DNA from: a virus
IMG/VR virus record: IMGVR_UViG_3300045988_168232
Span: 46,269-110,268 of that record
Direction: 5' to 3' (one strand)
Length of the DNA stretch: 64,000 nucleotides
Below, piece by piece: positions 3,646 through 62,620 of this stretch. Each line of letters begins with the position of its first letter. The first letter of the stretch is position 1. The notes beneath the pieces are model-generated. The model was not told the DNA's origin and did not search any database. It saw nothing but the letters and a program-made list of their open reading frames with translations. The position numbers and the translations under genes were made by a program.

Positions 3646-4893
3646 ATGGCAAAGCAACAAGGGTTTAAGTTTATTAAAGGTGTTTGCAGTACTGGTAGCC
3701 CGGCGGACATTTTCCTTTATACAGATGTGGACTACTGGAGTGTTGATAACTTTCTTTGGGAGTTTGATTACCTGATTAATTATGTGAATCCAAGCAAAAT
3801 AAGAATACATATCAATTCTGTAGGAGGAAGCGTTGTAGAAGGTATGAGTGTATTTGCAAAGATTCAAGATTGTGCTATACCGACAGAATGTATCAATGAT
3901 GCTTTGGCGGCTTCAATGGGGTCAATTATTTGGGCTGCTGGTGATGAACTGTATATGAAAGACTATGCGTTACTAATGATTCATAATCCATTTTGCGATG
4001 TAAATGGGAATAAACAATATGACCAAACAACAGAAGCTTTTACAATGCAATTAAAAACTATTTACATGAAACGCTTCGGACTTAGCGAAGAGGATGTGGA
4101 AAATATTATGAATGGTAAAGATGGCGAAGACGGTACATTCTTGACAGCGACCCAGGCAATTGAAAAGGGCTTTGTTAAAGCCGACCATGTTATTGAAACC
4201 CCTCAAGCCGTAAAAGACAAAATAAATGCTGCTTTAAAAAGCAGTAAGGATATAGTTCAAATTAAAGCAGTTTATGGATTGATCTCATCTACGTTACCAA
4301 CAGCTACTATTAACAAACAGAATATCAACTCAATTTTAGAAACAATGGAAAAGAACGAAATTACTGTTTTTGCCGCTCTCCTTGGATTGACAGGAGAAAA
4401 GGCAACGTCCGAAAATGTTTCTGCAAAGATTAATGAACTGAAGGCAAAAGCCGATAATGCTGATGCCCTTCAGAAATCACTTGACGAGACAAAAGGTGAG
4501 CTGACAAAAATCAATGCGGAACTTACCGGCGCAAAAACTTCAATCAAGAATTTGACTGAAGATTTGGATAAGACAAAAACGGCCCTGAAAGTATATCAGG
4601 ATGCAGAGACAAAAGCCAAAGAAGAAAGAGTTACAGCACTCATCGACAAGGCTATTGCAGAGTGTAAAATCAACAAGGAAGAACGTGAAGCCTATACCAC
4701 TATGGCCCAAAACAATTTTGAACTTGCTGAGAATGTGTTGTCAAAAATTCCGGCACGAGACAATTTGGGGCAAATCATTTCACAGGCAAATAAAGGTAAT
4801 GCAGAAAAAGGAGTTCAAACTGAACAGCAAAGGGTTTTTGCAAAGGTGGATGAGGTTGTAGGGAAAGACTTCAAATTCCGTACCCTTAGCTAA
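3646..4893 (+). CDS. prohead protease (ClpP/S14-type) fused to a coiled-coil scaffold-like C-terminal region
   Basis: ClpP signatures are present: INSVGGSV, ALAASMGS (Ser nucleophile context GxAASMG) and LMIHNP (His). Residues ~230-415 are heptad-rich in K/E/A/L. It lies directly upstream of the capsid gene. Confidence 0.75.
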   Translation: MAKQQGFKFIKGVCSTGSPADIFLYTDVDYWSVDNFLWEFDYLINYVNPSKIRIHINSVGGSVVEGMSVFAKIQDCAIPTECINDALAASMGSIIWAAGDELYMKDYALLMIHNPFCDVNGNKQYDQTTEAFTMQLKTIYMKRFGLSEEDVENIMNGKDGEDGTFLTATQAIEKGFVKADHVIETPQAVKDKINAALKSSKDIVQIKAVYGLISSTLPTATINKQNINSILETMEKNEITVFAALLGLTGEKATSENVSAKINELKAKADNADALQKSLDETKGELTKINAELTGAKTSIKNLTEDLDKTKTALKVYQDAETKAKEERVTALIDKAIAECKINKEEREAYTTMAQNNFELAENVLSKIPARDNLGQIISQANKGNAEKGVQTEQQRVFAKVDEVVGKDFKFRTLS

Positions 4894-6336: not shown

Positions 6337-7710
6337 ATGGCTACGAATACTAATTTAGGAGGTGTTTTTACCACTGATATTGATGGTAAAAAGACCAGTA
6401 ATGTGTTCCTCAGCACAGAAAATGTTGTTGGTCTTATTTTTGATACCAGTATCGTTGGTGGGCTTGAAAAAGCTCTTGGAACAGATACTGTAGCAGCTAA
6501 AGCTTTTGCAAATGGAAGTGTTGTAGAGCTTAATACTTCAAAAGATCTGAAAGAGGCTGGTATCGACGAATCTGTTTTGGCAGGTATCGCAAAATACCAT
6601 CTTGATTGTTTCTTCAGTCTTGCTGGTGGAACGCAACGTATCTTTGTTTCATTTATGAACAGTGATGATGACGCTGATTTTGAAGCTGTAGAAAAGATGC
6701 AGCTTGCATCCGGTGGCATCATTTATCAGATTGGTGTATGGACTGGAAAACCTATTGCTACTAAAAACGGTGATGATTCTTATTCGGTTGAAGCGGGCAA
6801 TATCTGTGCTAAACTTGAATCTGTTGCTGAAATTTTAGGGGGTAAGGTTGGCATAACTAACTATGAAGGTAATGCTCCATTAAACATTTTACTTAATGCG
6901 CCTATCATAGATGAGGCTGTTGTGGATTTGAAAAAACTTCCTGATCTCAGTGAGATGGATTTTCCTAAAGTAACTGTACTTGTTGGGCAAGCTCCTACTG
7001 ATACAGTTCATAAGCTTATGTATGATGTCAATCATGTAAATGACTCAACTGAATCATTTGCCCCGGTTGGATGTGTTGGTGCTGCTATTGGATGTTTAGC
7101 GGTTGCCCCGGCAAATGAAAGTATCGCTCATGTCAATGGATTTAATCTTGCCGCAGTAATGCAGGATGCAGAACTTGGTTTTGGCAATATTGTTAAAGAT
7201 GATGACAATGACGTTTATGGATCTGAATCTTCATTTACCAATATTAAAACAATTGGTTATACCAAGCGTAACACTTATCTTCACAAAAAAGGCTATGTTT
7301 TCTTGACCAATTATGACGGGCTAGAAAATAGTATTTTTTTCAGTAGCGATCAGACACTCAGTATTGGTGATTATCGTACAATCGCACGTTGTCGTGTAAT
7401 GCATAAAAGTCGTAGAGTTGTTCGTCGTGCTCTTTTGCCACGTGTAAACAGTAATGTTGAGATTGATGTAACGACAGGAAAATTGTCCGCTTCTGAAATT
7501 GCAGAATTTCAGAATATTGTGATTCAGGCGCTTGATATGAATATGGTCGAACCTGGAACATCGAAACCGCAAATTAGTGGCCGTACATGTATTATTGATG
7601 AAAATCAAGATGTGCTTAACACTGATGCGATTGATATTCATTACAGCCTCGTACCTCTTGGAGTTACCAGTGTAATCAATGTTACAGAAGGGTTCACGTC
7701 AACCATTTAA
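6337..7710 (+). CDS. tail sheath-like protein (copy 1)
   Basis: A 457-aa ORF followed by a ~166-aa tube-sized ORF, a chaperone-sized ORF and the tape measure, which is the sheath-tube-chaperone-TMP order. It is collinear with a paralogue at 9082..10365. Confidence 0.5.
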   Translation: MATNTNLGGVFTTDIDGKKTSNVFLSTENVVGLIFDTSIVGGLEKALGTDTVAAKAFANGSVVELNTSKDLKEAGIDESVLAGIAKYHLDCFFSLAGGTQRIFVSFMNSDDDADFEAVEKMQLASGGIIYQIGVWTGKPIATKNGDDSYSVEAGNICAKLESVAEILGGKVGITNYEGNAPLNILLNAPIIDEAVVDLKKLPDLSEMDFPKVTVLVGQAPTDTVHKLMYDVNHVNDSTESFAPVGCVGAAIGCLAVAPANESIAHVNGFNLAAVMQDAELGFGNIVKDDDNDVYGSESSFTNIKTIGYTKRNTYLHKKGYVFLTNYDGLENSIFFSSDQTLSIGDYRTIARCRVMHKSRRVVRRALLPRVNSNVEIDVTTGKLSASEIAEFQNIVIQALDMNMVEPGTSKPQISGRTCIIDENQDVLNTDAIDIHYSLVPLGVTSVINVTEGFTSTI

Positions 7711-8337: not shown

Positions 8338-8401
8338 GATGGCGCATCAAATACGCCTCACTGAAGTATAATTTATAAACAATTAAAAACCAATTACAGC
8401 A

Positions 8402-8818
8402 ATGGCAAAAGAAAAGAAAACAGAAGTAGTCGAAGACCGACAGGCAACCCCAGCTATCGAGTTCATCAACGATGTGAATGTTCCAATTGAAGTACGTGAG
8501 AAAATTGTAAAGAAAGCAGAAGAACTAAAATCCCAGCACAAATTGCGTAAAATCTTCATCATTGTTGTTGAAGGTGAGGATGGGGATGATAAGCCTCTTT
8601 ATATCGCTTATTTACGTCGTCCGAGCCTCATGCATTTCAGTCAGTATATGAATTTTGTCCAAAAGGATTTGGTACAGGCAAATAAAATGCTTGCAACCAA
8701 TGTGTTCCTTGAAGGGGATCGTGAACTGGTTGATGATGATGAGTTGTTCTTGTACGGCACAATGCAGCAACTCAGTCATTTAATTGATTCTCGCAATGCT
8801 GACATGGTAAAGCAATAG
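8402..8818 (+). CDS. tail assembly chaperone (gpG-like, by position)
   Basis: A 138-aa acidic ORF between the tube and the tape measure. A -1 frame extension is open from 8803 to 9018. Confidence 0.45.
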   Translation: MAKEKKTEVVEDRQATPAIEFINDVNVPIEVREKIVKKAEELKSQHKLRKIFIIVVEGEDGDDKPLYIAYLRRPSLMHFSQYMNFVQKDLVQANKMLATNVFLEGDRELVDDDELFLYGTMQQLSHLIDSRNADMVKQ

Positions 8819-27427: not shown

Positions 27428-28759
27428 ATGGTGACGTATGAGGATTTGGTAGAGGCCTATTATGATTGTCGTGTACATAAGTCGCGGACAAACAACTGCA
27501 TTAAGTTTACTCTTGATGTAGAGGGTAATCTATATGATATGATGCAAGCCATCAACAATAGAACCTACCAGCCTAAACGCTCCATTTGCTTTGTCGTTAG
27601 TCGCCCCAAATACCGTGAGGTGTTCGCTGCTGATTTTGCAGACCGAATCGTGCATCATTACATCAGGTTACGGTTAGAACCGATTATTGAGCAAAAATTT
27701 AATGATAGGACATTTAATTGTAGAAACGGAAAAGGCACATTGGCTGGAGTTACACAGTTGAAGCACGATATGATTGAATGTTCTCATAATTATACAACAG
27801 ACTGTTATGTAGCAACAGTGGACATCAACAGTTTCTTTATGTCTATCCCTAAAAAACTTGTTGAAAATTTAGTTATTCAACTTGTGAAGGACAAATATGA
27901 TGGCGATGACAAAGAGGACTTAATTTATTTATGCCACGTTGTATTAAGCCATAGCCCGGAGGACAATTGCATCAAACATTCATCAGACGAAATGTGGACG
28001 CATCTACCGTCCAGCAAATCATTGTTTACTAACGGAAAGGGGCTGGGTATGCCAATTGGTAATCTGCCATCTCAGATGTTTGCTAATTACTTATTAAATG
28101 AAGTTGATTGGGCTATTGAAACGGATTGTGGTATTAAATATCACGGACGCTATGTGGATGATATTTATCTTGTTGCAGAAACAAAAGAACAAATCCTAAA
28201 CGCCATTCCAATCATCAGGACACGCTTGGAATCATTAGGGCTTAAATTATCTCCAAATAAATTTTATATACAACATTACAGCAAAGGTATAGATTTTACC
28301 GGTGCTATAGTAAAACCTGGAAGGGTCTATCCTTTGAATCGGACTGTCACTTCATTCAGACACAGTATTGACAGACTCAACCAGTGTAAAACCAAATCTC
28401 AGATAATAAAAGCATTGTATTCCGTAAATAGCTATTTAGGGCTAATGAGACAATATAATAGCTATGCTATCAGATATAATGCCCTACATGAAATAGATAA
28501 AAGATTGTATAAATGGATATATATTAAAGGCAATATGGAAGTAGTTGCCCTGAAAAGAAAATATCATCCTAAAACACGTATAAATTATAGATTATCACAT
28601 GGGCTTAATCACAAATTGTCATTACCAAGACCTATAGCTGATTTTGAAGAAAGAGAAGATAGAACAAAATATATCAGACTATTGGCTGAGTACACTTCAG
28701 TCGATATTTTCCCAATAAGTGAACTTAAAGAGAGAGCAAGACTATTATCTAATATATAA
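27428..28759 (+). CDS. DGR reverse transcriptase
   Basis: RT motifs are present: PKYREVFAADFADRIVHH, VDINSFFMSI and the YVDD catalytic box (HGRYVDDIYLVAE). The DGR-clade signature (I/L)GxxxSQ appears as PIGNLPSQ. Confidence 0.92.
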   Translation: MVTYEDLVEAYYDCRVHKSRTNNCIKFTLDVEGNLYDMMQAINNRTYQPKRSICFVVSRPKYREVFAADFADRIVHHYIRLRLEPIIEQKFNDRTFNCRNGKGTLAGVTQLKHDMIECSHNYTTDCYVATVDINSFFMSIPKKLVENLVIQLVKDKYDGDDKEDLIYLCHVVLSHSPEDNCIKHSSDEMWTHLPSSKSLFTNGKGLGMPIGNLPSQMFANYLLNEVDWAIETDCGIKYHGRYVDDIYLVAETKEQILNAIPIIRTRLESLGLKLSPNKFYIQHYSKGIDFTGAIVKPGRVYPLNRTVTSFRHSIDRLNQCKTKSQIIKALYSVNSYLGLMRQYNSYAIRYNALHEIDKRLYKWIYIKGNMEVVALKRKYHPKTRINYRLSHGLNHKLSLPRPIADFEEREDRTKYIRLLAEYTSVDIFPISELKERARLLSNI

Positions 28760-35727: not shown

Positions 35728-36195
35728 TTACTTATTACAATTTTTCCAGAAACGGCTGGTGATATTCCTTAAAACATATCCATCCACTTTATAGAGACGC
35801 TGGTTGGTTTTAGGGGAGGTCAGACCGCCCAATTTCTTTATGTATGGACCCAATTTTAGGTAATCGAAATTCTTGTATTCAGCAAAAATAGAAAACCACT
35901 CCTGACCACTGTACCAGCCAATTTTTAAATGAGGATAAGACTGCCGGATATGCCCAGCAAGTCTATTAATTTCATCTGGCTCAATATCTCCACCCATAAA
36001 ACATACGCATGTAATACCTGTATTCTTCTCTATAAGCAGGTTTAGTGACGATTCAGTTAATGGTTCTCCAATATCTTTCCATAAATGCTGGCTATGACAC
36101 CCCTCGCATCTTATCGGGCAATTAGATATATTAATTGCCAACGTCACTTCATCGGGGACTTCTGCAAATACTATTCGTGTATCAACGTATTTCAT
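35728..36195 (-). CDS. nrdG: anaerobic ribonucleotide reductase activating protein (radical SAM)
   Basis: Contains the CPIRCEGCHS (CxxxCxxC) cluster motif. It is 155 aa and overlaps the nrdD stop by 4 nt. Confidence 0.85.
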   Translation of the reverse strand: MKYVDTRIVFAEVPDEVTLAINISNCPIRCEGCHSQHLWKDIGEPLTESSLNLLIEKNTGITCVCFMGGDIEPDEINRLAGHIRQSYPHLKIGWYSGQEWFSIFAEYKNFDYLKLGPYIKKLGGLTSPKTNQRLYKVDGYVLRNITSRFWKNCNK

Positions 36196-38354
36196 TGTAT
36201 CTGCTCCTTTCCGTTGCTATAAACTCGTTTAGCAGCTTCTACCTGGCGGTCTTGGCCAAAGGTTTTAATGGGGCGTAAATAGCCGATGACCCTTGTGTAC
36301 TGAGTGATATGCAAACCTCCGCATTTGGGACACACAATAATCGGTTTCTTAATGATATGACCACAATCTTCACATTTGCTGTTCGGAACATTGAACGTGA
36401 AATAACTGGTACCGTTCTCAATGGCAAAGTCAATCAGCTTCAGATATTGTTCTTTGCTAAGGTGATCTTCCAAATTGATATGAGCGGCAGAACCTCCATC
36501 AGTATATTGATAAGTCTGTCGGCCATGCAGAATAAATTTGTCCAATACAGAGGTGTCATCGTGGGCATTATAGAAATAACTGTTATACAGGTTCTCGTCT
36601 TCGGGTACCCAATAACCGTCTTCTTTATCCCAGTTGTAGTTCTTACCGCCTAATCCTTCTGCTGGAACAACCTCACTGTTAAACAAGAAAGGCCGTTTGC
36701 GGTCGTGAACGGAATACAGTTTATTTTGCTCCTTAATCGTGCCCAATATTAATTGTAAGAATCGGATGTATTCAGGATTGTTAGACACTTGCATACCTAA
36801 GAAACGGGCTGCCTCATTCAAACCATTAATGCCTATGGTGCTATATAGTTTGGACATATAGATATAGCCGCCATTGGAAGCAGCAAACATACCTTGCTCC
36901 TCCAAGTCATACAACATTGTCTTAAATGCAATATGATATTTATACACCCTTTTTAGGATCTCTACAAGATAATCTTTAATGAAAGAAGTGTTTTCCACCC
37001 AACCTCCATGAAGACCGTATGCTTTTACACAGTCTTGGATAATCCTATTGATATTCAAGGTAATCACATTGCAACTTCCTGTCATAACGCCTGTAAGACC
37101 AGATGTAGGACTGAAGGTGTTTTCTGACACCTCATTCCTAAGTCGACAACAACTTGCAAGGCTATCTGCACTATCGGAAATATATGTAAAAAACGAATGT
37201 CCTTCTGCATACATCTCGGCGCACAATTGCTTGTAGTCTTGGTCAACGATGTCTTTTCCATCGTGTACCATCGCGAAGGTCTCTACGGGGAAAGTCAATA
37301 CTTGCTTCAGGCGTATTTGGTTAAACCACTTCATAAAAAGTCGTTGCAAGGTATCAATCGCTTCCCATTCAGGTTTAGAAGCATCTGGGTAGCAAAAGTT
37401 CTTGAACAACGAATGGAAATATGTCTGGTCGTAGTAAGAGATGTTAGTGAATGGGCTTTGATAACTACGGTTGCCTGCCGGTTGATTCACACCCCACACA
37501 AATTGTTTGAACGCTTTTAGAATACTGTCCTTGACTGTACGTTGGATTTTACAATGAGAAGTAGATACTATACAGTCCAATTTCTCATACCACAACGGAC
37601 CAAATTCCATCACAGCATAGTAATTGAGGGCAATAAAGTACTCGCCAAATGCTACAGCTCCTTTGCATTGTGATGAAAGCAAAAAAGCAAGATTGGTAAT
37701 CTGCCCACTGAATGATTGTAAGTCGTTAGGTTCACTGGGAGTTACGCCATCAATATTACCCACACCTTCCGTCATCAAAGGATAAAGTGATACCGCTTGA
37801 CAATAGAACTTGGTGGTAGGTACGCTAGCCTCGTCATGTGTGTATATAATATGATGATTGAGGTCTTTTTCATATTGTTCAGCAACCTTTGGATAGAGTT
37901 TTTGCAATTCATTTTTCATACGCTGCCGTTGGATTAAACGGTTGGTGGTTTTATACACCTCACCTTCCAAATTGGCTACATTCTTCATGGTCACATTGGC
38001 ATTGCCATCGGTTTCTGAAGATGTGGCGGCATTATCTGAAGAATTACTATATCGGTCCATATAATCAATGCGCTCACGGATAAAGCGTGCCTCTTGATGT
38101 TGTTGGCGGTACAAGATAAATGCCTTAGCCACATCACAGTGGCCGGACTGCATTAGCGACCTTTCTACCATGTCTTGTATTTTTTCCACTGAAATCGGAT
38201 TCTCTAACATAGCACAATCCAGCCACATCTTCACTTCTGTTACAATGGTATCGTCATACTCAACGCCTTGGCTTTCAAACGCCTTTCTGACAGCTGTTTC
38301 AATTTTGTTCAGGTCAAAATCCATCAATTGACCATTCCTCTTTAGTACTTTCAT
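36192..38354 (-). CDS. nrdD: anaerobic (class III) ribonucleoside-triphosphate reductase
   Basis: It has an N-terminal ATP-cone-like region (VLKRNGQLMDFDLNKI) and a C-terminal Zn ribbon (CEDCGH...CPKCGG). The glycyl-radical motif TRVIGYLRP is present. Length is 720 aa. Confidence 0.9.
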   Translation of the reverse strand: MKVLKRNGQLMDFDLNKIETAVRKAFESQGVEYDDTIVTEVKMWLDCAMLENPISVEKIQDMVERSLMQSGHCDVAKAFILYRQQHQEARFIRERIDYMDRYSNSSDNAATSSETDGNANVTMKNVANLEGEVYKTTNRLIQRQRMKNELQKLYPKVAEQYEKDLNHHIIYTHDEASVPTTKFYCQAVSLYPLMTEGVGNIDGVTPSEPNDLQSFSGQITNLAFLLSSQCKGAVAFGEYFIALNYYAVMEFGPLWYEKLDCIVSTSHCKIQRTVKDSILKAFKQFVWGVNQPAGNRSYQSPFTNISYYDQTYFHSLFKNFCYPDASKPEWEAIDTLQRLFMKWFNQIRLKQVLTFPVETFAMVHDGKDIVDQDYKQLCAEMYAEGHSFFTYISDSADSLASCCRLRNEVSENTFSPTSGLTGVMTGSCNVITLNINRIIQDCVKAYGLHGGWVENTSFIKDYLVEILKRVYKYHIAFKTMLYDLEEQGMFAASNGGYIYMSKLYSTIGINGLNEAARFLGMQVSNNPEYIRFLQLILGTIKEQNKLYSVHDRKRPFLFNSEVVPAEGLGGKNYNWDKEDGYWVPEDENLYNSYFYNAHDDTSVLDKFILHGRQTYQYTDGGSAAHINLEDHLSKEQYLKLIDFAIENGTSYFTFNVPNSKCEDCGHIIKKPIIVCPKCGGLHITQYTRVIGYLRPIKTFGQDRQVEAAKRVYSNGKEQIQ

Positions 38355-46224: not shown

Positions 46225-46902
46225 ATGCAGTTTATGTCATCAAAAATGCCGTTAAAACCGGACAAATCAACTGTTAAATGTAAGCAGTTAAGTCCAAGTG
46301 AAAAAGAAATACTTTTCAATAAGTACATTGTTCCTAATTTCAGTAGCATAAAAAGTCTTACAAGGAGATATACTGACCATTATCAGGATGTTGATGAAAA
46401 TTACAATTACTGTCTGGCCCAATTATTCAATTACATTGGATCATACAATCCAGAGCAGAAACTTGATACATGGATTCATATTTGCGTCAAACGAGCGTGT
46501 TTTCATCAAAATAAAAAACGTGCAGAAGATGCTTCACATTGGACCGATATAGAAATGTGTACCAATGAAGACATTTATCAAAATGGAACGAATATGATTG
46601 TTGATGCGGGATTCGGAACATTGATAGATAATATATCAGATCAAATGTATAACGCATTAATGCAAATACCTTCACAGAGATTATCTCCATTTATGATGTA
46701 TGTACAAGGACATCGTATAAGGGAGATAACTGCTGCAGAATGGAGAATGGGGCATCTTGAAAAACGAAGTGAAGATGTTGTGAAAAGTCGGATATATTGG
46801 GCTAAAAGAGAATTGCAATACATACTCAGACAATATGGAATTACAAGAAAGAACCGTAAAGGTCCGGAAAATGATCGAGACTGTAGTGAAGAGGACGATT
46901 AA
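46225..46902 (+). CDS. sigma-70 family (ECF-like) RNA polymerase sigma factor
   Basis: The region-2-like segment is DVDENYNYCLAQLFNYIGSYNPEQKLDTWIHICVKRACFHQNKKR. The region-4-like HTH is RLSPFMMYVQGHRIREITAAEW...VVKSRIYWAKRELQYIL. Confidence 0.6.
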   Translation: MQFMSSKMPLKPDKSTVKCKQLSPSEKEILFNKYIVPNFSSIKSLTRRYTDHYQDVDENYNYCLAQLFNYIGSYNPEQKLDTWIHICVKRACFHQNKKRAEDASHWTDIEMCTNEDIYQNGTNMIVDAGFGTLIDNISDQMYNALMQIPSQRLSPFMMYVQGHRIREITAAEWRMGHLEKRSEDVVKSRIYWAKRELQYILRQYGITRKNRKGPENDRDCSEEDD

Positions 46903-48835: not shown

Positions 48836-49855
48836 ATGATTATCACACCAGAAATGCAGCGTTCCATTACAGAAGAGCTGCTCTATGACTTTAGAGGCAA
48901 GATGGACGGGTCTCGCCGGAATATACTTATACAACATTGTCCTTTCTGTGGACATGACGGTTTTAAGTATGGTATTTATGTTGGAAACAATCTTGGAAAG
49001 AAGCGCTTTGGTATGTCTAATTGCTATCATTGTAACAGACGATATGGTTCATTGAAGGAAACTCTGAAAGCACTTGGAAGAGAGGATTTACTTCCAAAAG
49101 AAACAGCGCAACTTGATGACTCAGAAACAGATATTTCATCCATGTTTGACGATGAAATAGATGATGAATTGGTTGACGCAGTAATGCCGAATGGTTATAA
49201 ACGCTGCTACAGAAATAGCTATTTGAAATCACGTGGTTGGGTTATGGATGATTATGAATATTTCCCGGTTGGTACTAATCGTGGTTTTGATAGAGAGTAC
49301 AATGATTATATTATTTTAGAGGTTCGTGATGAGGGTCGATGCGTTGGATTTGTTGCACGTAGCATTCTTAGTAAAGATGAGATAGATTCATATAATTCCA
49401 GACATCATTTTAAGATACGTCGATATAAAAATTCAGATGAACGTATGGGTAATGGATTTTCTAAAATGTTATATAATTATGATGCTATTGAAACAATGAC
49501 TACTCACTCTGTAATTCTGTGCGAAGGGCCATTCGATGTTGTTGGGCTTAATCGAAAATTAGAACTTTATGACAACAAACATATTGTTCCGGTAGCAACT
49601 TTCGGCAAAAAGATTAGTCAGGAGCAAATGTTTAAGTTGCAGAAAAAAGGTGTTGAACAAATTGTGATAGGTTATGACAATGACGCAAAAGAAACCACAT
49701 CCAGAATTGCTATGGAATTGGAAAAATACTTTGACGTACTGATTGCTGACATACCTAATGGCGTTGGTAAAGACTGGGATGAAATGGATGTTGAGGATAT
49801 CTATGATGTCTTTGCTTTTAATTTAAAAACTATTCGTGAATTTAATCTTGGATAA
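48836..49855 (+). CDS. DNA primase (Zn-finger + Toprim)
   Basis: The Zn finger is CPFCGH...CYHCNRRYGS. The Toprim motif is VILCEGPFDVVG ... VIGYDNDAKE. Confidence 0.65.
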   Translation: MIITPEMQRSITEELLYDFRGKMDGSRRNILIQHCPFCGHDGFKYGIYVGNNLGKKRFGMSNCYHCNRRYGSLKETLKALGREDLLPKETAQLDDSETDISSMFDDEIDDELVDAVMPNGYKRCYRNSYLKSRGWVMDDYEYFPVGTNRGFDREYNDYIILEVRDEGRCVGFVARSILSKDEIDSYNSRHHFKIRRYKNSDERMGNGFSKMLYNYDAIETMTTHSVILCEGPFDVVGLNRKLELYDNKHIVPVATFGKKISQEQMFKLQKKGVEQIVIGYDNDAKETTSRIAMELEKYFDVLIADIPNGVGKDWDEMDVEDIYDVFAFNLKTIREFNLG

Positions 49856-51617
49856 AATGAGTGAAGCAGTAACATTAAAAGAATGGCTTGACAATCATCA
49901 TATAACTTATTCTCTAAGAAAAGATGTATTGGTTATTCCTGGATTTGGTAGATGTTTAATTCAGGAAAGTTACGACCATATTTTCAAACAGAATAAAGAT
50001 GGGGAGACTGTTTTTAATTCTATTGAAAACATATCATATCTTTTGGCTGATGATATTACTTATATCGTTTTTCCATTTGGTTGCAGATGGTTTTATGTGG
50101 ATATCCGTAATGACCCATTGGATTTACAATTTCAAATACTTAGATATGTTGGTGATTCTCCTGTATTTGAACATAAATGTGAATTTTATCCGCTTGGTAT
50201 CCACTCTGGATATGAATTACTAAATGGAAGTGGTTTATTGAAAGATTGGTGCACAAAAACAAAATTTTTAGGATATAAAGGTTTATCTGTTGCGGATAGA
50301 AATACAATGGCAGCGTCTTTGGATTTACAGCAATCCGCAACAGAAAAAGGTATTAAATATTGCTTTGGCTATTCATTGACAGTAAATACTGGAAAAGATA
50401 AAGTTGGGGTTAAAATATATTCGGCTACGCAACAGGGGTTTAAAAATATGCTCCGTATTCAAAAGGCAATAGCTGTTGATAATATAGACACCAAAGAGAT
50501 TAATCTGATTGATTTTTTGAATTTGGCAGATGGTAATACTTTGGTATTTGATAAATGGTCCGGACATTGGTTGACCGACAATAAGGGGATTCTTCAGGAT
50601 TTTATTACAGCTTTTTCTGGGTGGGTGTTTTTTCAAGTTGATACAACTGAATATCGTGCAGACAGAATAGATTCAACTCTTCTTCAAAGTCAAAAGGCAT
50701 ATTTTGATAATTTTTATTTAGGTGATTTAGAGTATTATATGGATGTCCGTCCAGTTTTGATTCAAGATGTATATTATTTGGATAAAGAGGACTGGAAAAC
50801 AAAAATCATTCTCAATAAAATTGATACTGGTGCGGCACATGAACAATCACATAATCAATATTTGAAAACTATAGACGAATTGTATAATGAATTTAGATCT
50901 CTATTCTCAGACCGATATGATGATGATGTGTTTTATGATATGTGTGAATCCACTGCCGACATTATTGAAAATGCCACAGCTGCTTATGATTTGAGTGATA
51001 ACTATGCTCCCAAATATGATATGACTCCACAGGAGCAGGCTAAATATGGCAATACGCTTAATATGTTTCACCAATTAATAGAAGAGGGGTTTAAGAAGCT
51101 GGTTCCAGAGGGGGAGGAAGAGCGATATCGTAAACGTGTTGAATATGAAAAATATGTCATAGAGAGTACGGATAACGTAGATTATTTCTTGATTCAGAGA
51201 GATGAGTTGAATTGGGCGCAAGAAAATGGTATTTTGACTGGAATTGGTCGTGGATCTGCCGGAGGATGTTTATTGTTATATTTGATGGGCATTACATTTA
51301 TTGACCCACTTAAATATGATTTGATTTTTGAGCGTTTCCTGTTACCTGAGAGAGCCGGTCTTGTGCCTGATAAAGTAACAATAGTGGCGGAAGAAATTCA
51401 GTCTTCGGATTATTTTGAATTGGCTTTTGAAAATGGGGAAAGACTCTTGCTTGATAAAGATGCAGAATTGGTTGTAAATCGCAATGGAGAGCAATTGATT
51501 GTGTATGCAGATGAACTGCAAGAAGGTGATGATATTCAGTTTGATAATTGTGATTTACTTCACACGTTGCCTAATATTTTGCAGTATGAAAATTCAATCC
51601 ATAATCAGAAAAACTAA
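49836..51617 (+). CDS. dnaE: DNA polymerase III alpha (DnaE-type), N-terminal fragment ending in a split-intein-N-like tail
   Basis: A PHP-like region is followed by GIGRGSAGGCLLLYLMGITFIDPLKYDLIFERFLLPER, which is DnaE-conserved. Homology then breaks. The last ~87 aa (AGLVPDK...DYFELAFENGERLLLDKDAELVV...LHTLPN...) look like a Hint-fold N-half. Confidence 0.8.
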   Translation: MNLILDKMSEAVTLKEWLDNHHITYSLRKDVLVIPGFGRCLIQESYDHIFKQNKDGETVFNSIENISYLLADDITYIVFPFGCRWFYVDIRNDPLDLQFQILRYVGDSPVFEHKCEFYPLGIHSGYELLNGSGLLKDWCTKTKFLGYKGLSVADRNTMAASLDLQQSATEKGIKYCFGYSLTVNTGKDKVGVKIYSATQQGFKNMLRIQKAIAVDNIDTKEINLIDFLNLADGNTLVFDKWSGHWLTDNKGILQDFITAFSGWVFFQVDTTEYRADRIDSTLLQSQKAYFDNFYLGDLEYYMDVRPVLIQDVYYLDKEDWKTKIILNKIDTGAAHEQSHNQYLKTIDELYNEFRSLFSDRYDDDVFYDMCESTADIIENATAAYDLSDNYAPKYDMTPQEQAKYGNTLNMFHQLIEEGFKKLVPEGEEERYRKRVEYEKYVIESTDNVDYFLIQRDELNWAQENGILTGIGRGSAGGCLLLYLMGITFIDPLKYDLIFERFLLPERAGLVPDKVTIVAEEIQSSDYFELAFENGERLLLDKDAELVVNRNGEQLIVYADELQEGDDIQFDNCDLLHTLPNILQYENSIHNQKN

Positions 51618-54582
51618 CACAGTATTAGTGAATGACTGTTATGCCGGAGATGGGTATGTAAAGCGTAATCATGGCTCATTGCCAGATATTGACTCAGATT
51701 TTAATGCGGAACGTAGAGATGAAGTTAAGGCATATTTAGAGAGAAGATATAATAAAAATGGGTTGCAGAGAGTGTTTTCGGCCGGCACATTTACTACTGA
51801 AAAAATAAAATCAGTGATTAAAGATGTGGCCAGAACTTATAAAATTTCACAAGCCACTACTAATTATCTTACAGCTATTCTTGATGATAATATGACGTGG
51901 ACGGATTTGATGAAAATGGCATCAACCGATAAGCGCATGAAGGATTTTATAATGAAATATCCTGATGTATTTGAAGAGATTTTACCAATTATGGGGCAAG
52001 CACGTTCTGCCGGTATTCATGCGTCCGCACTTATTATTACTCCAGAATTTGTTAAAGGTGAGCGTGTCGAGTGTTTTGATTTGTTGCCGATTAGAAAAAT
52101 GGGCGATCTTCTTGTTTCTGAGATTTCTGGTAATGATATTGATGCAATCGGTATTCTTAAAAATGATGTTCTTGGTATTAGGGAGCTTACAAGACTTTCT
52201 GATACATTGAATCTTGTAAGCAATGAGTATAATGTGCATTATACTATATTGGAAATTGCATCTAAATATTTGAATGACCCGAAGGTTTTTAAAATCATTC
52301 GTGAAGGTAATACTCAGGGAATCTTTCAAATGGGGGGTGAAGGTATTACAAAATTTATAAAGCGTCTTGCTCCCGATAATGTCAATGACCTTATTGCATC
52401 AGTTGCTCTGTTTCGTCCTGGACCGTTGGATTCTGGTGCTGCTGATAATTATGTGCGTGCTAAACGGGGTGAGTATGAGCCAACGTATTTATGGGGGACG
52501 TATGAAATCCTAAAAGATACATACGCCCAGATGGTTTATCAAGAGCAGATTTCCCGTGTTGCTCAAAAAGTAGGTGGTTTAAGTTTGGGTGACGGAGTGA
52601 ATCTGGTCAAGGCTCTAAGTAAGAAAAAACTGGAAAAGGTTCGCAAATTCCAAGATAAGTTTTTCTCAGGTGCTAAACGAAACGGATGTCCGAAAGAAGC
52701 CGCAGATCAAATCTGGAGTAATGTTGAGGACGCAGCCAAATATTCATTCAACGCCTGCATAGGAGGACACGAATATCTGTGGGGGAAACATAAAGAGAAA
52801 GGGCGTGGAACCAGAATCAATATTGGTGATATGTGGCGCACAGTACATGATTATGAATGGGCTAAAACTAATGGTAGATTATCTCTTAGACGTAAATACA
52901 TCAAGTATGGATATGGCACCTGTTGGTCGTTGAACGAAGAAGATAAGTTAGTTATAAATAGAATTGTTGATATTCGCTATCAAGGTGTCCGTCCGGTATA
53001 TCGGATAACGCTTGCAAATGGTGCTACTATTGATGTGACGGATAATCATAAGCATCCGACTCTTGATGGTAAAAAACGTACTGACCAATTGGTTCCAGGA
53101 GAGGATTTTATGTTTATAAGAGTTGGGTGGATAAAAGAAGATACATCATATCGTTTTACGGATAGGGGGCAGCAAAATAATCCACGGTATCATTCAAATG
53201 ATAATGTGGAATCATATATTGTCAATATCGAAGCAGGTCGGTGTGGTTTTGTTAAACGTTATACCAATTATACAAAATTGGAGTATTATGAAAAAAATCT
53301 CAAAAAAGATTATTGTGAAATATGTGGTTGCCGAAATAAACGTTTAGAAGTTCATCATATTAATGGAGACCATTCTGATGTGGGGGAAAACTATTCAAAT
53401 GTACAAACGACCTGTGTTAGTTGTCACAAAAAAGCACATTATCAGATGGGGCGTACAAAAATGGGACGCAAAGGACTTGGAACAGCTGTTGCACAGGTTG
53501 TATCTGTTGAATATTTGTGCAATATGGATGTATATGATGTTGAGATGGCAAATCCATATCATACTTTTTTAACCGGGAAAGGTGTTGTTACCTGCAATTC
53601 TCATGCAACAGCTTATGGTTTGACTGCTTATGTCGGGGCATGGTTAAAAACATATTATCCTACAGCTTTTTATACTGTAGTTTTGCGAGACCAAGACGAA
53701 GATAAAATGGCGGTTTTGATGAATGAGATAAAAGCTGTTGGAGGAACTGAAATTGAACAGCCGGATATTAATATTTCAGATGAAAATTTTACGGCAGATT
53801 TTAAGCATAATAAGATTTACTGGTCTTTGACTCGTATAAAACAGTTAGGACCAAAAGCTGTGAAGTATATAGTCCAGGAGCGTAAGCTATATGGTGAGTT
53901 CTATAACTTGGATGATTTTATCAAACGTATATTTAAGAGTAAATTTAAAAGTTTTAATGATGAAGGTACGGAAGAAACCAGAGAACGATGTCCAGTTACG
54001 GCACGTAGTGTTAGGAACCTTATTTTTTCCGGTGCTTTTGATAAGTGTGAGCATGTTGGTTCTGTGCTTGAACGATATGGATTGCTTGATAAAGCCGCCA
54101 CTCTTTTAGGATTTAAGTTGAATGAAAAAGAAGTTCCAGAGGATATGCGTGATAAGCATTATTTTTGGAGTAAACAGCAAATTACGATATCAGGTCATGG
54201 TTCCATTGATTATCGTAGGATTTATGATAATATGGAAAAGCCAAAGTCTTTACAATCTTATAAATACATTGAGTTCAAAGATTTGAATAATATGTTTTAT
54301 GAACTTAGGAAAGGAGTTATTTGTGCGGCTATTTGTTCTGTTTCGGACAAGTCATATAAAGATAGGCGTACTGGTGAAACAAAACATTTTGGGAAAATAG
54401 AATTGCAACAAAATACGGAGACTAATATTCTGACAATTTGGGATGATTGGGACATACTGAAAAAGGAGTTTAAAAATGCCGTAGGACACATTATTGCCAT
54501 TGTCGTGAATGTGAAATGGAGTGATTATGATGAAAAGAATACACTTCAGGTTGGCAAAAGTTCATTTTTTAAATTGATATAA
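51586..54582 (+). CDS. dnaE: DNA polymerase III alpha (DnaE-type), C-terminal fragment beginning with a split-intein-C-like peptide; contains an HNH intein
   Basis: I set the start at ATG 51586, giving MKIQSIIRKTNTVLVNDCYAGDGYVKRNHG followed by SLPDIDSDF, where DnaE homology resumes (compare E. coli PERVSMPDFDVDF). The ORF-track start 51499 lies out of frame inside the upstream ORF. Later DnaE motifs are present: GIHASALIIT, FRPGP and KYSFNA|intein|SHATAYG. Confidence 0.8.
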   Translation: MKIQSIIRKTNTVLVNDCYAGDGYVKRNHGSLPDIDSDFNAERRDEVKAYLERRYNKNGLQRVFSAGTFTTEKIKSVIKDVARTYKISQATTNYLTAILDDNMTWTDLMKMASTDKRMKDFIMKYPDVFEEILPIMGQARSAGIHASALIITPEFVKGERVECFDLLPIRKMGDLLVSEISGNDIDAIGILKNDVLGIRELTRLSDTLNLVSNEYNVHYTILEIASKYLNDPKVFKIIREGNTQGIFQMGGEGITKFIKRLAPDNVNDLIASVALFRPGPLDSGAADNYVRAKRGEYEPTYLWGTYEILKDTYAQMVYQEQISRVAQKVGGLSLGDGVNLVKALSKKKLEKVRKFQDKFFSGAKRNGCPKEAADQIWSNVEDAAKYSFNACIGGHEYLWGKHKEKGRGTRINIGDMWRTVHDYEWAKTNGRLSLRRKYIKYGYGTCWSLNEEDKLVINRIVDIRYQGVRPVYRITLANGATIDVTDNHKHPTLDGKKRTDQLVPGEDFMFIRVGWIKEDTSYRFTDRGQQNNPRYHSNDNVESYIVNIEAGRCGFVKRYTNYTKLEYYEKNLKKDYCEICGCRNKRLEVHHINGDHSDVGENYSNVQTTCVSCHKKAHYQMGRTKMGRKGLGTAVAQVVSVEYLCNMDVYDVEMANPYHTFLTGKGVVTCNSHATAYGLTAYVGAWLKTYYPTAFYTVVLRDQDEDKMAVLMNEIKAVGGTEIEQPDINISDENFTADFKHNKIYWSLTRIKQLGPKAVKYIVQERKLYGEFYNLDDFIKRIFKSKFKSFNDEGTEETRERCPVTARSVRNLIFSGAFDKCEHVGSVLERYGLLDKAATLLGFKLNEKEVPEDMRDKHYFWSKQQITISGHGSIDYRRIYDNMEKPKSLQSYKYIEFKDLNNMFYELRKGVICAAICSVSDKSYKDRRTGETKHFGKIELQQNTETNILTIWDDWDILKKEFKNAVGHIIAIVVNVKWSDYDEKNTLQVGKSSFFKLI
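52756..53598 (+). mobile_element. intein with HNH homing-endonuclease domain inside DnaE
   Basis: It interrupts the conserved FN(K/A)-SH motif. It begins with Cys (CIGGHEY) and has block B VTDNH. The HNH region is CEICGCRNKRLEVHHINGDHSD...CVSCHKKAH. It ends VVTCN, followed by Ser. Size is 281 aa. Confidence 0.85.
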
Positions 54583-59935: not shown

Positions 59936-62620
59936 ATGGCACGGTTAGAAAAACCAAGAGGGTTAAATATTACCTTTAAACCCTCTGAAAGGCAGTACGA
60001 ATTATGGAATGCGTTACAGCCTAACCATTGCGACGAATGCGGTGGAAAACTCATTATGAAGCCTAATGGATTTGATAAGAATGGACATCAAATCTATCAA
60101 GCTACATGTGATAAATGTGGTAATACAGATATTCCCGAACAAGTGCTTGGGGGCGGAAGCGCAGGTGGTGGAAAGCAAATGTCTTTAGATTCAAATATAT
60201 GTACACCATTTGGTTTTAGAAAAGTACGGGATTTGAAAATTGGGGATATTATTACAGACCCAAATACTGGAGGACAACAAAGGATAATCTGGCTGCATCC
60301 TATTTGTGAATGTCAATATTATAGAGTATATTTTGTTGATGGAACCTACTCTGAATGTTCTGAAGATCATTTGTGGCAATTGCACGTCTCTCGTAAAAAA
60401 ACAAAGAAAAAGGATGAAAATGGCAATGCAATGAATGAGAGGGTATGGACTACAAAAATGATAGCAGAGTGGATGCAGGAGAAAGAAAATGGAATTAACA
60501 AAGGAGTAAATTTGATTATCCCATTAACTGCTCCGGTTCAGTTTACTATGGCTGGAAGATACGATTATGATAAAATCATTGACCCATATTTCATTGGATG
60601 TCTTATTGGTAATGGTTGTTTCACTCGAAATATGGTGGATAATGGCTCTGTTGAACTTACAACTATGGATGTTGAAATGGTTGAAAGAATAGCTGAAGCA
60701 GGCTTTTCTTATACTTCCATACATCAAAAAACAGGTAATAAAGCAAAGAATTATCTTTATCGTAACAATCGTCTAATTGAGCATCTTAATAGAATTGGTC
60801 TTGCCGGTCATTCGGCAGCAGACAAGTTTATTCCTGACGTATATAAGTATTCGACAATAGAAAACAGAAAACTGCTTATGCAAGGTCTAATGGATACTGA
60901 TGGGTATGTAGATGATCGTGGGCACATGAGTTACACTTCTATTAGCAAACAATTGGCTGAAGATGTGGCTTGGGTTGTCAGAAGTCTTGGTGGGAAAGCT
61001 ACAATTACTTCCAAAATACCGACTTATACTTACAAAGGAGAAAAGAAAGAGGGGCAGAGAGCTTACACTGTTTATCTTATGACCAAATTTGATACTGAAC
61101 TTGTCTATATTCCAAGAAAAAAGGAAAGAGCAAGAAATGGCTTTAATGGAGGAAATTCTGAACTTGGGAAGAGAATTATTGGGTGTGAGAAGATTGGCAT
61201 GGTGGAAGGACGTTGTATTACTGTCGATAATCCCAATGGGCTCTATGTCGCAGATAATTTTACCGTTACCCACAACTCTTACATTGGTTGTTGTTGGCTA
61301 ACCCTCAGTTGTATGCAATTTGAAGGAATCCGTATGGTTGTTGCCCGTAAAGTTCGTAAAACACTTTTGGAAACAACGTGGAATACTTTAAAGGATGTGT
61401 TAAGGGCTTGGGGGCTAAAGCAAGATGTACATTATCATATCAATAACTTATTATATACAATTACATTTTGGAACGGTTCTGAAATCATTGCAATGGACTT
61501 GACACCCAGTCCTGGCGACCCGGATTTTAACTCTTTAGGTTCACTTGAAATTACAGGTGGTTTTATTGATGAGGTATCTGAGGTGTCGGAAAAGGCTGTT
61601 GAAGTGTTGGCTTCTCGTATTCGTTATAAAATAGCAGAAACCTTTGTTGTAGGAAAATTATTCATGTCAACAAATCCTTGTTTGACATGGGTAAGGTCAA
61701 CTTTCGTAATGGATGATGACGGAAATCCCGTAACATTGTCTAAAGGTTATCGCTATATTCCTTTCAGCTTGTTTGACAACCCCAACGAGCAGTTTCGGGC
61801 AATTTACTATAACAAATTGAGCAAGCTTCGTAATAAAGCGGACAGAGACCGTTTGTTATACGGTAACTGGTTATTCACTACCAGCAATAAAATGGCTGCC
61901 TATTGGAATTTCGATGGCGACAAGCACCTTGTTCACAATCTTAGGGAACAGGTTTATGACCCGATGAAACCACTTATATTAAGTTTTGACTTTAATGTCA
62001 ATCCATATATGAGCTGTTTACCTATGCAGATAGATTACGATAATAAGAAAATCTATATTTTCCCGGAGTATGTAGGTTATCCGAAGGACAAGAGAAACAA
62101 TACACCGACGTTCACAAAATGGATAGCTGCCCAGCTTGTTGCTGACGGTCATATTGGTGGCGTGCTTATGACCGGCGACCCGGCAGGATTGGCCCGTTCG
62201 ACACAGACGGAAGATGGCGTGAACAATTTTACCATAGCTAATAAGAACATGACAAACGCTGTCCTTAAACCTAAGATACAGCTTTTGAGCAAGCAACCTG
62301 CTATGGTAACAAGATTGGAGTTCGCCAATGAATTATTGAATGGATATAATGGATGGACGATAGCTATTGACGCTCGATGCCACAGGTTGGTTGAAGATTT
62401 TGTCTATCAAAAGAAGAATCCTGATGGGACCAAAGAGAAAAAGAAAATATTGAATGAAAGTGGGGAAAGGGTAGAGCGTTATGGTCATTTTTCTGATTGT
62501 TTCGATTATGCTGTGATATATTATCTTGGGAACGAATATTCAAATTATCGTACAGCGACAGTTGATATAGTAACCACGATTGATATGGGTGAGACTGTTT
62601 ATGGAGATTTTGACTATTAA
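59936..62620 (+). CDS. terminase large subunit, interrupted by an intein; N-terminal Zn-ribbon
   Basis: The P-loop GGGSAGGGK is followed by the intein. The sequence then resumes SYIGCCWL...ARKVRKT, with Walker B GGFIDEVSEV. The nuclease half contains LILSFDFNVNP and LMTGDPAGLARS. The N-terminus carries CDECGG...CDKCGN. Confidence 0.85.
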   Translation: MARLEKPRGLNITFKPSERQYELWNALQPNHCDECGGKLIMKPNGFDKNGHQIYQATCDKCGNTDIPEQVLGGGSAGGGKQMSLDSNICTPFGFRKVRDLKIGDIITDPNTGGQQRIIWLHPICECQYYRVYFVDGTYSECSEDHLWQLHVSRKKTKKKDENGNAMNERVWTTKMIAEWMQEKENGINKGVNLIIPLTAPVQFTMAGRYDYDKIIDPYFIGCLIGNGCFTRNMVDNGSVELTTMDVEMVERIAEAGFSYTSIHQKTGNKAKNYLYRNNRLIEHLNRIGLAGHSAADKFIPDVYKYSTIENRKLLMQGLMDTDGYVDDRGHMSYTSISKQLAEDVAWVVRSLGGKATITSKIPTYTYKGEKKEGQRAYTVYLMTKFDTELVYIPRKKERARNGFNGGNSELGKRIIGCEKIGMVEGRCITVDNPNGLYVADNFTVTHNSYIGCCWLTLSCMQFEGIRMVVARKVRKTLLETTWNTLKDVLRAWGLKQDVHYHINNLLYTITFWNGSEIIAMDLTPSPGDPDFNSLGSLEITGGFIDEVSEVSEKAVEVLASRIRYKIAETFVVGKLFMSTNPCLTWVRSTFVMDDDGNPVTLSKGYRYIPFSLFDNPNEQFRAIYYNKLSKLRNKADRDRLLYGNWLFTTSNKMAAYWNFDGDKHLVHNLREQVYDPMKPLILSFDFNVNPYMSCLPMQIDYDNKKIYIFPEYVGYPKDKRNNTPTFTKWIAAQLVADGHIGGVLMTGDPAGLARSTQTEDGVNNFTIANKNMTNAVLKPKIQLLSKQPAMVTRLEFANELLNGYNGWTIAIDARCHRLVEDFVYQKKNPDGTKEKKKILNESGERVERYGHFSDCFDYAVIYYLGNEYSNYRTATVDIVTTIDMGETVYGDFDY
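60182..61276 (+). mobile_element. intein with LAGLIDADG homing-endonuclease domain inside the terminase ATPase P-loop
   Basis: 365 aa. Block A is SLDSNICTPFGFRKVRDLKIGDII. The two dodecapeptide motifs are YFIGCLIGNGCF and LLMQGLMDTDGYVD. It ends FTVTHN followed by Ser (61277). The N-terminal boundary is uncertain by a few residues. Confidence 0.8.

Follow-up and report, generated by a model that had tools for sequence, protein, structure and literature searches.

Why does a phage replicative DNA polymerase carry about a hundred surplus residues at a break in the middle of its palm domain, and do these residues still splice? The question is raised by the 64,000-nucleotide stretch analysed here (the window), which corresponds to positions 46,269 to 110,268 of the IMG/VR virus record IMGVR_UViG_3300045988_168232 and in which a DnaE-type DNA polymerase III alpha subunit is encoded by two overlapping open reading frames (ORF1 and ORF2). 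The end of the first and the beginning of the second resemble the two halves of a split intein. The original prediction, made from the sequence alone, had left two readings of this junction: a highly divergent trans-splicing intein, or a domesticated, non-splicing pair of split Hint pieces that holds a two-chain polymerase together. Residue loss, selection and charges favour the latter, and the split DnaE module is probably a domesticated, non-splicing split-Hint clamp of a two-chain polymerase.

Organization of the split DnaE locus

The break in DnaE lies inside the palm, directly upstream of the catalytic PDxDxDF motif, whose aspartates in the window's version (SLPDIDSDF) we take to be the counterparts of E. 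coli D401 and D403. According to the original prediction, DnaE homology runs to ...FERFLLPER(AG) and resumes in the +1 frame at SLPDIDSDF. Rereading of the sequence and the positions of the Pfam matches agree with this: DNA_pol3_alpha ends at profile position 100 in ORF1 and picks up at 94 in ORF2, and the PHP, palm (with its PDxDxDF), fingers and HhH domains that characterise a DnaE-type Pol III alpha subunit are all present, spread over both ORFs. The surplus codons described on the two sides of the break were also found as predicted. In fact, the last 87 codons of ORF1 (51354-51614), which follow ...FERFLLPER, read AGLVPDKV...LHTLPNILQYENSIHNQKN and are closed by a TAA at 51615-51617, whereas ORF2, in the +1 frame with respect to ORF1, opens at ATG 51586 with 30 codons (MKIQSIIRKTNTVLVNDCYAGDGYVKRNHG, 51586-51675) that precede SLPDIDSDF. 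The overlap between the two ORFs is 32 nt, as had been reported (Table 1).

The related but unsplit DnaE of Chryseobacterium phage MA9V-3 is contiguous in this region (FERFLNEGRVGKSLPDIDND) and has no insert. The residues between ...PER(AG) and SLPDIDSDF are absent from this protein and from bacterial DnaEs, and thus represent an intein-like insertion at a conserved site of the host protein.

The start of ORF1 is most likely ATG 49857 (MSEAVTLKEW), rather than the mechanically listed GTG 49836, because the relatives of this protein are 584-586 aa long and the upstream primase gene ends at 49855. Neither a terminator between the two DnaE genes nor a promoter signal above chance was found in the window. 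Since the genes overlap and no terminator separates them, the two halves appear to be co-transcribed.

Table 1. Position of the parts of the split DnaE module and of other genes of the window mentioned in the text.
Feature	Position in the window	Strand	Description
DnaE N-fragment gene (ORF1)	49857..51617	+	PHP domain and beginning of the palm; 586 aa when counted from ATG 49857; Pfam PHP and DNA_pol3_alpha 3-100
IntN-like core of degenerate split Hint domain	51354..51575	+	74 aa, AGLVPDKVT...DKDAELVV...YADELQEGDDIQFDNCDLLHTLPN; strongly acidic
13-aa end of the N fragment (ILQYENSIHNQKN) and TAA	51576..51617	+	Poorly conserved; varies among relatives, some of which lack it; overlaps the first codons of ORF2
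DnaE C-fragment gene (ORF2)	51586..54582	+	Rest of the palm, fingers and HhH; 998 aa including an internal intein; Pfam DNA_pol3_alpha 94-260, DNA_pol3_finger, HHH_6
IntC-like piece	51586..51675	+	30 aa, MKIQSIIRKTNTVLVNDCYAGDGYVKRNHG; basic; terminal invariant Gly in place of the intein Asn
C-extein opening SLPDIDSDF	51676..51702	+	Palm motif with catalytic aspartates; Pfam DNA_pol3_alpha resumes here
Second, canonical-looking intein with HNH endonuclease, inside the C fragment	52756..53598	+	281 aa; Pfam Intein_splicing 8e-5, HNH 1.6e-4
Reverse transcriptase gene	27428..28759	+	Pfam RVT_1 4e-19, PHROG reverse transcriptase 2e-77
NrdD-like anaerobic ribonucleotide reductase large subunit	36192..38354	-	
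Terminase large subunit	59936..62620	+	894 aa; LAGLIDADG/Hom_end domain at aa 303-381 (~60842-61078)

The same break in related phages

The split is real and is shared by many phages. A protein search returned more than 120 clusters of ORF1 homologues (570-604 aa, 67-96% identity), all with the same kind of tail. Metagenomes and isolated phages together yielded 207 distinct N pieces and 45 distinct C pieces in which the tail and head of the junction are conserved. The C fragments, which were found with a chimeric junction query, have a conserved M[KR][IV] start. In phage records, megablast with the 4.7-kb gene pair gave no matches and relatives were recovered by tblastn. Cellulophaga phages phi13:1 and phiST and Tenacibaculum phage Larrie carry two adjacent "DNA polymerase III alpha" annotations with the identical break point. 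The junction pieces measure about 74 + 30 aa in the window's clade and about 75 + 33 aa in most other clades, and are much shorter in the Cbastvirus phages (about 45 + 17 aa).

The spacing between N stop and C start, surveyed in 54 IMG/VR loci and in isolated phages, took values of -32, -26, -4, 0, +1, +2, +3, +7, +25, +495, ~1315, 1634 and ~2512 nt, with differing frame relations. A Pif1/Dda-like helicase gene separates the halves in Bacteroides phage BS-TP1, L052 and L039, and a NUMOD4 + HNH_3 homing endonuclease gene does so in L028 and L032; the window has no free-standing homing endonuclease at this place, the 32-nt overlap being found instead.

These observations bear on the possibility that the two ORFs are a single gene with a contiguous insert, interrupted by an assembly or sequencing frameshift or decoded by programmed ribosomal frameshifting. 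The overlap and the +1 offset seen in the window would fit such a gene, and one distant relative (P0296) does have a contiguous version. However, the identical break recurs in hundreds of independent assemblies and in the isolates phi13:1, phiST, Larrie and BS-TP1, spacing and frame vary to the point that entire genes lie between the halves, the C half invariably opens with a conserved Met-Lys/Arg, and there is no conserved slippery site. The probability of this explanation is next to nil, and the homopolymer or frameshift error, against which the original prediction had cautioned, is excluded by the comparative data alone. A programmed frameshift within the 32-nt overlap was ruled out on the same grounds, the overlap itself not being conserved.

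The gap between the halves is a hot spot for cargo (L001, L023, L028, L032, L039, L044 and L052), which comprises the Pif1/Dda-like helicase, a P63C-domain protein, ORFs of 70-119 aa, NUMOD4-HNH homing endonucleases, tRNA-Met and tRNA-Ser. Three of the small ORFs are mutually homologous (86-95 aa, starting with MKPIK). In L023 a tRNA-Met gene lies 57 nt past the N-fragment stop, with tRNA-Ser further downstream, and the DnaE C half was not found within the 2.2 kb examined. In BS-TP1 (PQ571274) the C fragment, 3' of the helicase, is without annotation. A 496-aa "hypothetical protein" encoded on a Bacteroides salyersiae chromosome (P0184, NXX53_06040; PERCGLHW...MKVQKVEKLL...GGHSAMPDIDTDF) passes from the N fragment through a garbled linker to the C piece, and seems to be what is left of this split DnaE in a prophage after a frameshift.

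Intein ancestry of the junction pieces

The two pieces are homologous to inteins. They lie on separate genes, are broken between blocks B and F and are each fused to their own extein, which is the layout of a naturally split intein. Pfam Intein_splicing matched them weakly (E 0.037). When a paired profile of N and C pieces was compared with all PDB sequences, the five best matches were the inteins 5o9j, 2cw7, 2jmz, 9hth and 2lcj (individual E-values 0.01-0.07); in these alignments DKDA of the family falls on the block-B TxxH, and the first strand of the C piece on the first strand of the C-terminal intein half (IntC) of 5o9j and 2jmz. The DKDA register is fixed by alignment to TRSH, TSGH, THDH and TYNH of real inteins.

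Among 1.84 billion representative proteins, only 64 matched the N-piece profile at E <= 1e-3, and most of them are family members. The remaining matches include canonical split N-terminal intein halves (IntN) at the end of ribonucleotide reductase (RNR) fragments (P0297, P0299 and P0280) and contiguous RNR inteins (P0292 and P0294), with E-values to true inteins from 2e-5 to 8e-4. In hhalign, the family profile aligned to the IntN of P0297, which ends ...IEFEDGNTYEFTYNHKLLVYRNGEEIWIRCDELKEGDDIININEKQ followed by a stop, with 97.9% probability (E 4.6e-13, 40% identity over 45 columns) and with DKDA on TYNH. The alignment to the cyanobacterial Npu DnaE intein had the same register and a non-significant E-value of 0.039. 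On these alignments, the nearest relatives of the junction pieces appear to be the phage-type split inteins that end RNR fragments. Profile searches thus found the Hint similarity on which the original prediction depended. Its comparison with split DnaE inteins stands with regard to intein ancestry, which both profiles and model support; the part that does not stand is a close kinship with the cyanobacterial DnaE inteins, since the RNR split inteins are nearer.

An active intein ancestor at the same site was sought by scanning viral and genome contigs for F-E-R-F-L-x-P-E-R-C, and no canonical intein was found in them. The single match in viral contigs (L057) is a degenerate family member that happens to carry Cys. 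The genome contigs gave 20 matches; 9 of these come from ordinary bacterial DnaEs, which are unsplit and have a Cys of their own after PER, and the others are frameshifted reads or chance matches. A faint repeat is visible at the two junctions in the window's clade only, where the N piece opens with G-L-V-P-D (51357-51371) and the C extein with G-S-L-P-D (51673-51687). A target-site duplication (GL.PD/SLPD) was considered and rejected, as other clades read GL.P.DVT and the likeness is probably due to chance.

Predicted fold

The window pieces, fused via the natural 13-aa tail, gave an all-beta AlphaFold2 model with a mean predicted local distance difference test score (pLDDT) of 80.6 and a predicted template modelling score (pTM) of 0.68. 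Block means in the conserved core were 88-96, the C piece (93-96) was packed on the N piece, and the 13-aa tail had values from below 50 to about 68. The alignment used was unpaired and shallow, with 10 N rows and 28 C rows; its N side was kept shallow because MAFFT misplaced the short C-only rows when more than about 10 N-only rows were present. In a Foldseek search of the PDB, the top 30 matches of the fusion model were all inteins or Hedgehog Hint domains (probability 0.72-1.0, at least 0.93 for 28 of them; E 2e-3 to 0.13; template modelling (TM) score 0.30-0.44), and the viral library returned intein-bearing terminases and RNRs. A Hint fold is thus predicted for the fused pieces. In a control model, made of the N piece alone with a deeper alignment, pLDDT was 62.6 and the first 19 residues were disordered, as compared to 88-96 with the C piece present. 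This result suggests that the C piece is required to complete the domain, as would be expected for a Hint fold, whose N-terminal strand pairs with the C-terminal strands.

It might still be argued that tail and head are an unrelated beta-rich insertion, which looks like an intein by chance or convergence. The Pfam match, the E-values of the single PDB sequences, TM scores of about 0.4 and the non-significant alignment to Npu DnaE would all be compatible with this. On the other hand, neither the hhalign match to a canonical split IntN nor the E-values to true inteins in a set of 1.84 billion proteins would be expected of such an insertion; three independent searches placed exclusively inteins or Hint domains on top, and the split point, the piece sizes, the charges and the homing endonucleases between the halves in relatives all match split inteins. 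We consider an unrelated insertion very improbable.

Loss of the splicing residues

Inteins of classes 1 to 3 all need a block-B His and a cyclising terminal residue (Asn, Gln or Asp), and Cys1 is dispensable in classes 2 and 3. The original prediction had listed non-canonical residues at the catalytic positions of the window's module, and the comparison extends each of them to the family. At position 1, where the window has Ala in place of Cys or Ser, almost all members have Ala or Gly (A 159, G 38, S 6 and C 4 in the 207 N pieces), followed by an invariant Gly-Leu. DKDA, which replaces TxxH in block B of the window, is also the commonest form, and neither Thr nor His was found at these positions in any of the 207 N pieces. 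The C piece ends with HG instead of HN: its last residue is Gly in 45 out of 45 cases and never N, Q or D, and the penultimate one is His in 21 of them. The block-A region, which had been described as truncated in the window, is shortened throughout the family, as is the F-G hairpin, and the register was confirmed by profile alignment to real inteins. The loss of catalytic residues is therefore family-wide.

The +1 residue is Ser in 41 of the 45 C pieces, including that of the window, Gln in 2, Thr in 1 and Ala in 1. This Ser may be a plain extein residue, because it is also present in the unsplit, insert-free DnaE of MA9V-3 and bacterial DnaEs have Gly, Ser or Thr at the same place. A Cys is often found in block F (V.DC.V), just after the conserved block-F Asp (F:4), and A, S, M or T takes its place in 9 of 43 C pieces; as we read the motif, this Cys would occupy the hydrophobic core position F:5. 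A class-3 (WCT) mechanism relying on it was considered and rejected, given this core position and these replacements, together with the lack of a block-B His and of a terminal Asn; there is no WCT triplet either.

Since the block-B His and a cyclising terminal residue are absent family-wide, splicing is not expected, and the split DnaE module presumably does not splice. The alternative is an active trans-splicing intein with non-canonical chemistry, so that the mature polymerase would be one ligated chain. It would be in keeping with intein-derived pieces that are split at the canonical point, with the +1 Ser, with the penultimate His and block-F Cys retained in many members, and with the ability of class 2 and 3 inteins to do without Cys1. 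However, it would have to work without block-B Thr and His in every N piece, with an invariant terminal Gly that is unable to cyclise, with Gln or Ala at +1 in some members and with a replaceable block-F Cys, although the known classes all need the residues named above; moreover, a stop separates the IntC-like piece from the extein in some relatives. We regard active splicing as quite improbable.

Selection, charge and the proposed docking function

With respect to L008, L009 and L017, omega was 0.05-0.12 in the N core and 0-0.10 in the C core, as compared to 0.01-0.03 for the neighbouring palm and exteins. These low values indicate that the remnant is under purifying selection and functional. 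The charges of the two pieces are complementary: the N piece has a mean net charge of about -12 and the C piece one of about +2 to +3. It is generally known that an acidic N and a basic C half drive the association of split inteins (Dassa et al., 2009, PMC2677866). We infer that the two halves of the module bind each other in the manner of split inteins, and their mutual binding would be the reason why the module is kept.

The locus could have arisen and could work as follows. A phage-type split intein (a fractured gene) would have inserted at the highly conserved site upstream of PDxDxDF; splicing would then have become dispensable and reduction would have followed. Homing endonuclease genes are still present in the gap of some lineages. 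Both DnaE chains would be made from one transcript, and the acidic IntN-like end and the basic IntC-like head would dock and fold into one reduced, beta-rich Hint domain. As a Hint domain has its two ends next to each other, docking would set ...PER(AG) beside SLPDIDSDF and would rebuild the palm non-covalently, without a peptide bond, to give a stable two-chain polymerase.

As to the family as a whole, we lean towards the view that a split intein has here become a heterodimerisation domain, permanent and catalytically dead, beside the polymerase active site, which would make it the first natural intein exapted for subunit docking. This family of Bacteroidota phages would include gut myophages like that of the window, Bacteroides phage BS-TP1 and the Cellulophaga/Tenacibaculum Cbastvirus phages, and would display stages of reduction: the full pair (about 75 + 33 aa), the minimal one of Cbastvirus (about 45 + 17 aa), a form that is contiguous and unsplit and possibly a three-piece or hop-decoded one. 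In line with the original prediction, which knew of no described non-splicing split-Hint pair, our search of the literature, which covered it in part, found no published natural splicing-dead or domesticated split intein and no split phage DnaE of this type.

Several points weigh against a clamp function. P0296 (L080, 3001-6774) is an unsplit DnaE of 1257 aa with a contiguous, shortened and equally degenerate insert (PER/CGLLPNDVT...VTNDSELMV...KVKLGIKSGYLLEGKP/SMPDIDIDF, slashes marking the junctions) and with the same helicase-primase-DnaE synteny. Whether it represents the pre-split state or a re-fusion, the insert can thus persist where no clamp is needed. Moreover, three independent lineages (L038/L043/L048 at ~8400-8460, L032/L033 at ~7500-7540 and L025 at ~4600-4640) contain an insert of 7-8 nt that opens with a stop just after ...GSLP(D)(V), the polymerase resuming in another frame. 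These inserts might reflect a three-piece enzyme (stop and restart), a short translational hop or decay. If the stop is taken at face value, it would detach the IntC-like peptide from the extein and, if these phages are viable, tethering would not be the whole function. The Cbastvirus pieces may be too small to make a full Hint fold. The structure is that of an artificial fusion computed on a shallow unpaired alignment, its Foldseek TM scores are modest and its E-values reach only 2e-3 to 0.13; the side-by-side position of the junctions is taken from Hint folds generally, not from the coordinates of the model. Finally, it is from the known chemistry of inteins that we argue against splicing, and there are precedents of non-canonical inteins that behaved unexpectedly.

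The end of each 7-8 nt insert repeats the codon before it in synonymous or near-cognate form, and skipping the insert restores a sequence of the SLPDVDIDYQ type. The protein matches P0179, P0224, P0235 and P0236 look like the same case.

Some of these points would be better explained if the module were an intein-derived relic, conserved for a reason other than tethering, with the polymerase halves associating mainly via their own palm interface. The C peptide might serve the folding or solubility of the N half-domain, the module might bind another part of the replisome, or it might be impossible to delete without damage to an active-site strand. The persistence of the insert in the unsplit P0296, the retention of the IntC-like peptide even where it is apparently detached from the C fragment and the strong reduction in Cbastvirus all speak for this, and purifying selection shows that there is a function, not which one. 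However, complementary charges, together with the mutual dependence seen in the models, are features that a docking module would require, the halves of most members are joined to their exteins exactly at the former splice junctions, and we found no evidence for any other partner. A function other than tethering therefore appears unlikely to us, and a docking clamp remains our preferred reading.

Comparison with known systems

Phage-type naturally split inteins are encoded by fractured genes at the gp41, NrdA/NrdJ, IMPDH and DnaE loci; each of their three DnaE sites is distinct from the other two and from that of cyanobacteria (Dassa et al., 2009, PMC2677866). The module described here is like them in several respects: two adjacent genes encode one replication enzyme (PMC2677866), the split falls at the canonical endonuclease-insertion point, the N half is acidic and the C half basic, and a free-standing homing endonuclease gene can lie between the halves, here in L028 and L032. 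IntN measures 88-105 aa in the fractured-gene inteins (PMC2677866) as compared to 74 aa here, and in both cases the C-terminal half is much shorter (30-38 aa for the IntC-like head here). With the RNR split IntN ends (P0297, P0299 and P0280) the likeness is one of direct sequence homology. In the fractured-gene inteins Cys1, block-B Thr and His, terminal Asn and a +1 nucleophile are all retained, and several have been shown to trans-splice, whereas the family here is without the block-B and terminal residues, almost always lacks Cys1, has a +1 Ser that may be a plain extein residue, and is shorter in the A-B region and in the F-G hairpin. It also appears to occupy another DnaE site.

The Ssp and Npu DnaE inteins of cyanobacteria share with the module the host protein, the natural two-gene split, the Hint fold and the electrostatic complementarity of the N and C halves. 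However, their genes are far apart, they are fully catalytic and their sequence similarity to the family is marginal. Their split site, which we take to lie before CFNKSH, also differs from that of the window; the corresponding region of the window's DnaE holds the HNH-containing intein listed in Table 1, presumably three residues from the cyanobacterial site.

Bacterial intein-like (BIL) and Hedgehog/Hog domains are likewise Hint folds without full protein splicing, and Hedgehog structures are found among the Foldseek matches. Both are single-chain and autocatalytic (cleavage or cholesterol transfer) and keep the N-terminal Cys and the block-B His. The BIL domain is a single-chain Hint with an N-terminal Cys and a C-terminal His-Asn for autocleavage, while the module here is made of two chains and lacks both motifs. 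We know of no BIL or Hog domain that acts as a non-covalent subunit clamp.

Kelman and co-workers reportedly described, in 1999, a split PolB of Methanothermobacter thermautotrophicus that is encoded by two genes and works without splicing; the PolB of Nanoarchaeum contains an active split intein. As in Methanothermobacter, the replicative polymerase described here consists of two chains that are broken at or near an intein insertion site. We are not aware of any report of a conserved pair of Hint-derived pieces at the Methanothermobacter junction, whereas here the Hint remnant has been kept and selection acts on it.

Engineered splicing-dead split inteins (e.g., Npu DnaE C1A/N137A) are used as capture or dimerisation tags, as the catalytic mutation leaves a tight IntN-IntC heterodimer. 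The principle is the same; those are laboratory constructs, whereas the module here would be, if our reading holds, their natural evolved counterpart.

Implications

Inteins are usually viewed as selfish elements that either splice or are lost. If our reading is true, a third fate would be domestication as a docking domain, in an essential enzyme and beside its catalytic aspartates, and this would explain how a fractured gene becomes permanently two-chain. The family offers a natural series for the minimal determinants of split-intein association, and small, natural, non-splicing heterodimerising tags could come from split-Hint pieces. Annotation is affected too, as the DnaE halves are now labelled as two polymerases, or the C half is missed, as in BS-TP1.

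Other inteins and genome context

The second intein of the window's DnaE has the motifs ...YSFNA/CIGGHE...TDNH...VVTCN/SHATAYG, that is, C1, TDNH and CN/S (slashes again marking the junctions). It is present in the closest relatives (L003-L014 and L016-L020) and absent, with a site that reads FN[AKR]SHA/SHS, in L001, L021, L025, L029, L038-L040, L042, L043, L048 and L052. Its canonical motifs indicate that canonical inteins are both present and recognisable in this lineage. The homing-endonuclease domain found in the terminase large subunit (Table 1) implies that this protein also contains an intein.

The phage of the window is a tailed, Bacteroides-type myophage with a tail sheath, a tape measure protein, NrdD, a reverse transcriptase and the intein-bearing terminase; its related contigs reach about 105-110 kb, and it is kin to Bacteroides phage BS-TP1. 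The nrdD-like gene, which is on the strand opposite to most genes of the window, is consistent with an anaerobic gut host. The reverse transcriptase gene lies among structural and tail genes and could belong to a diversity-generating retroelement.

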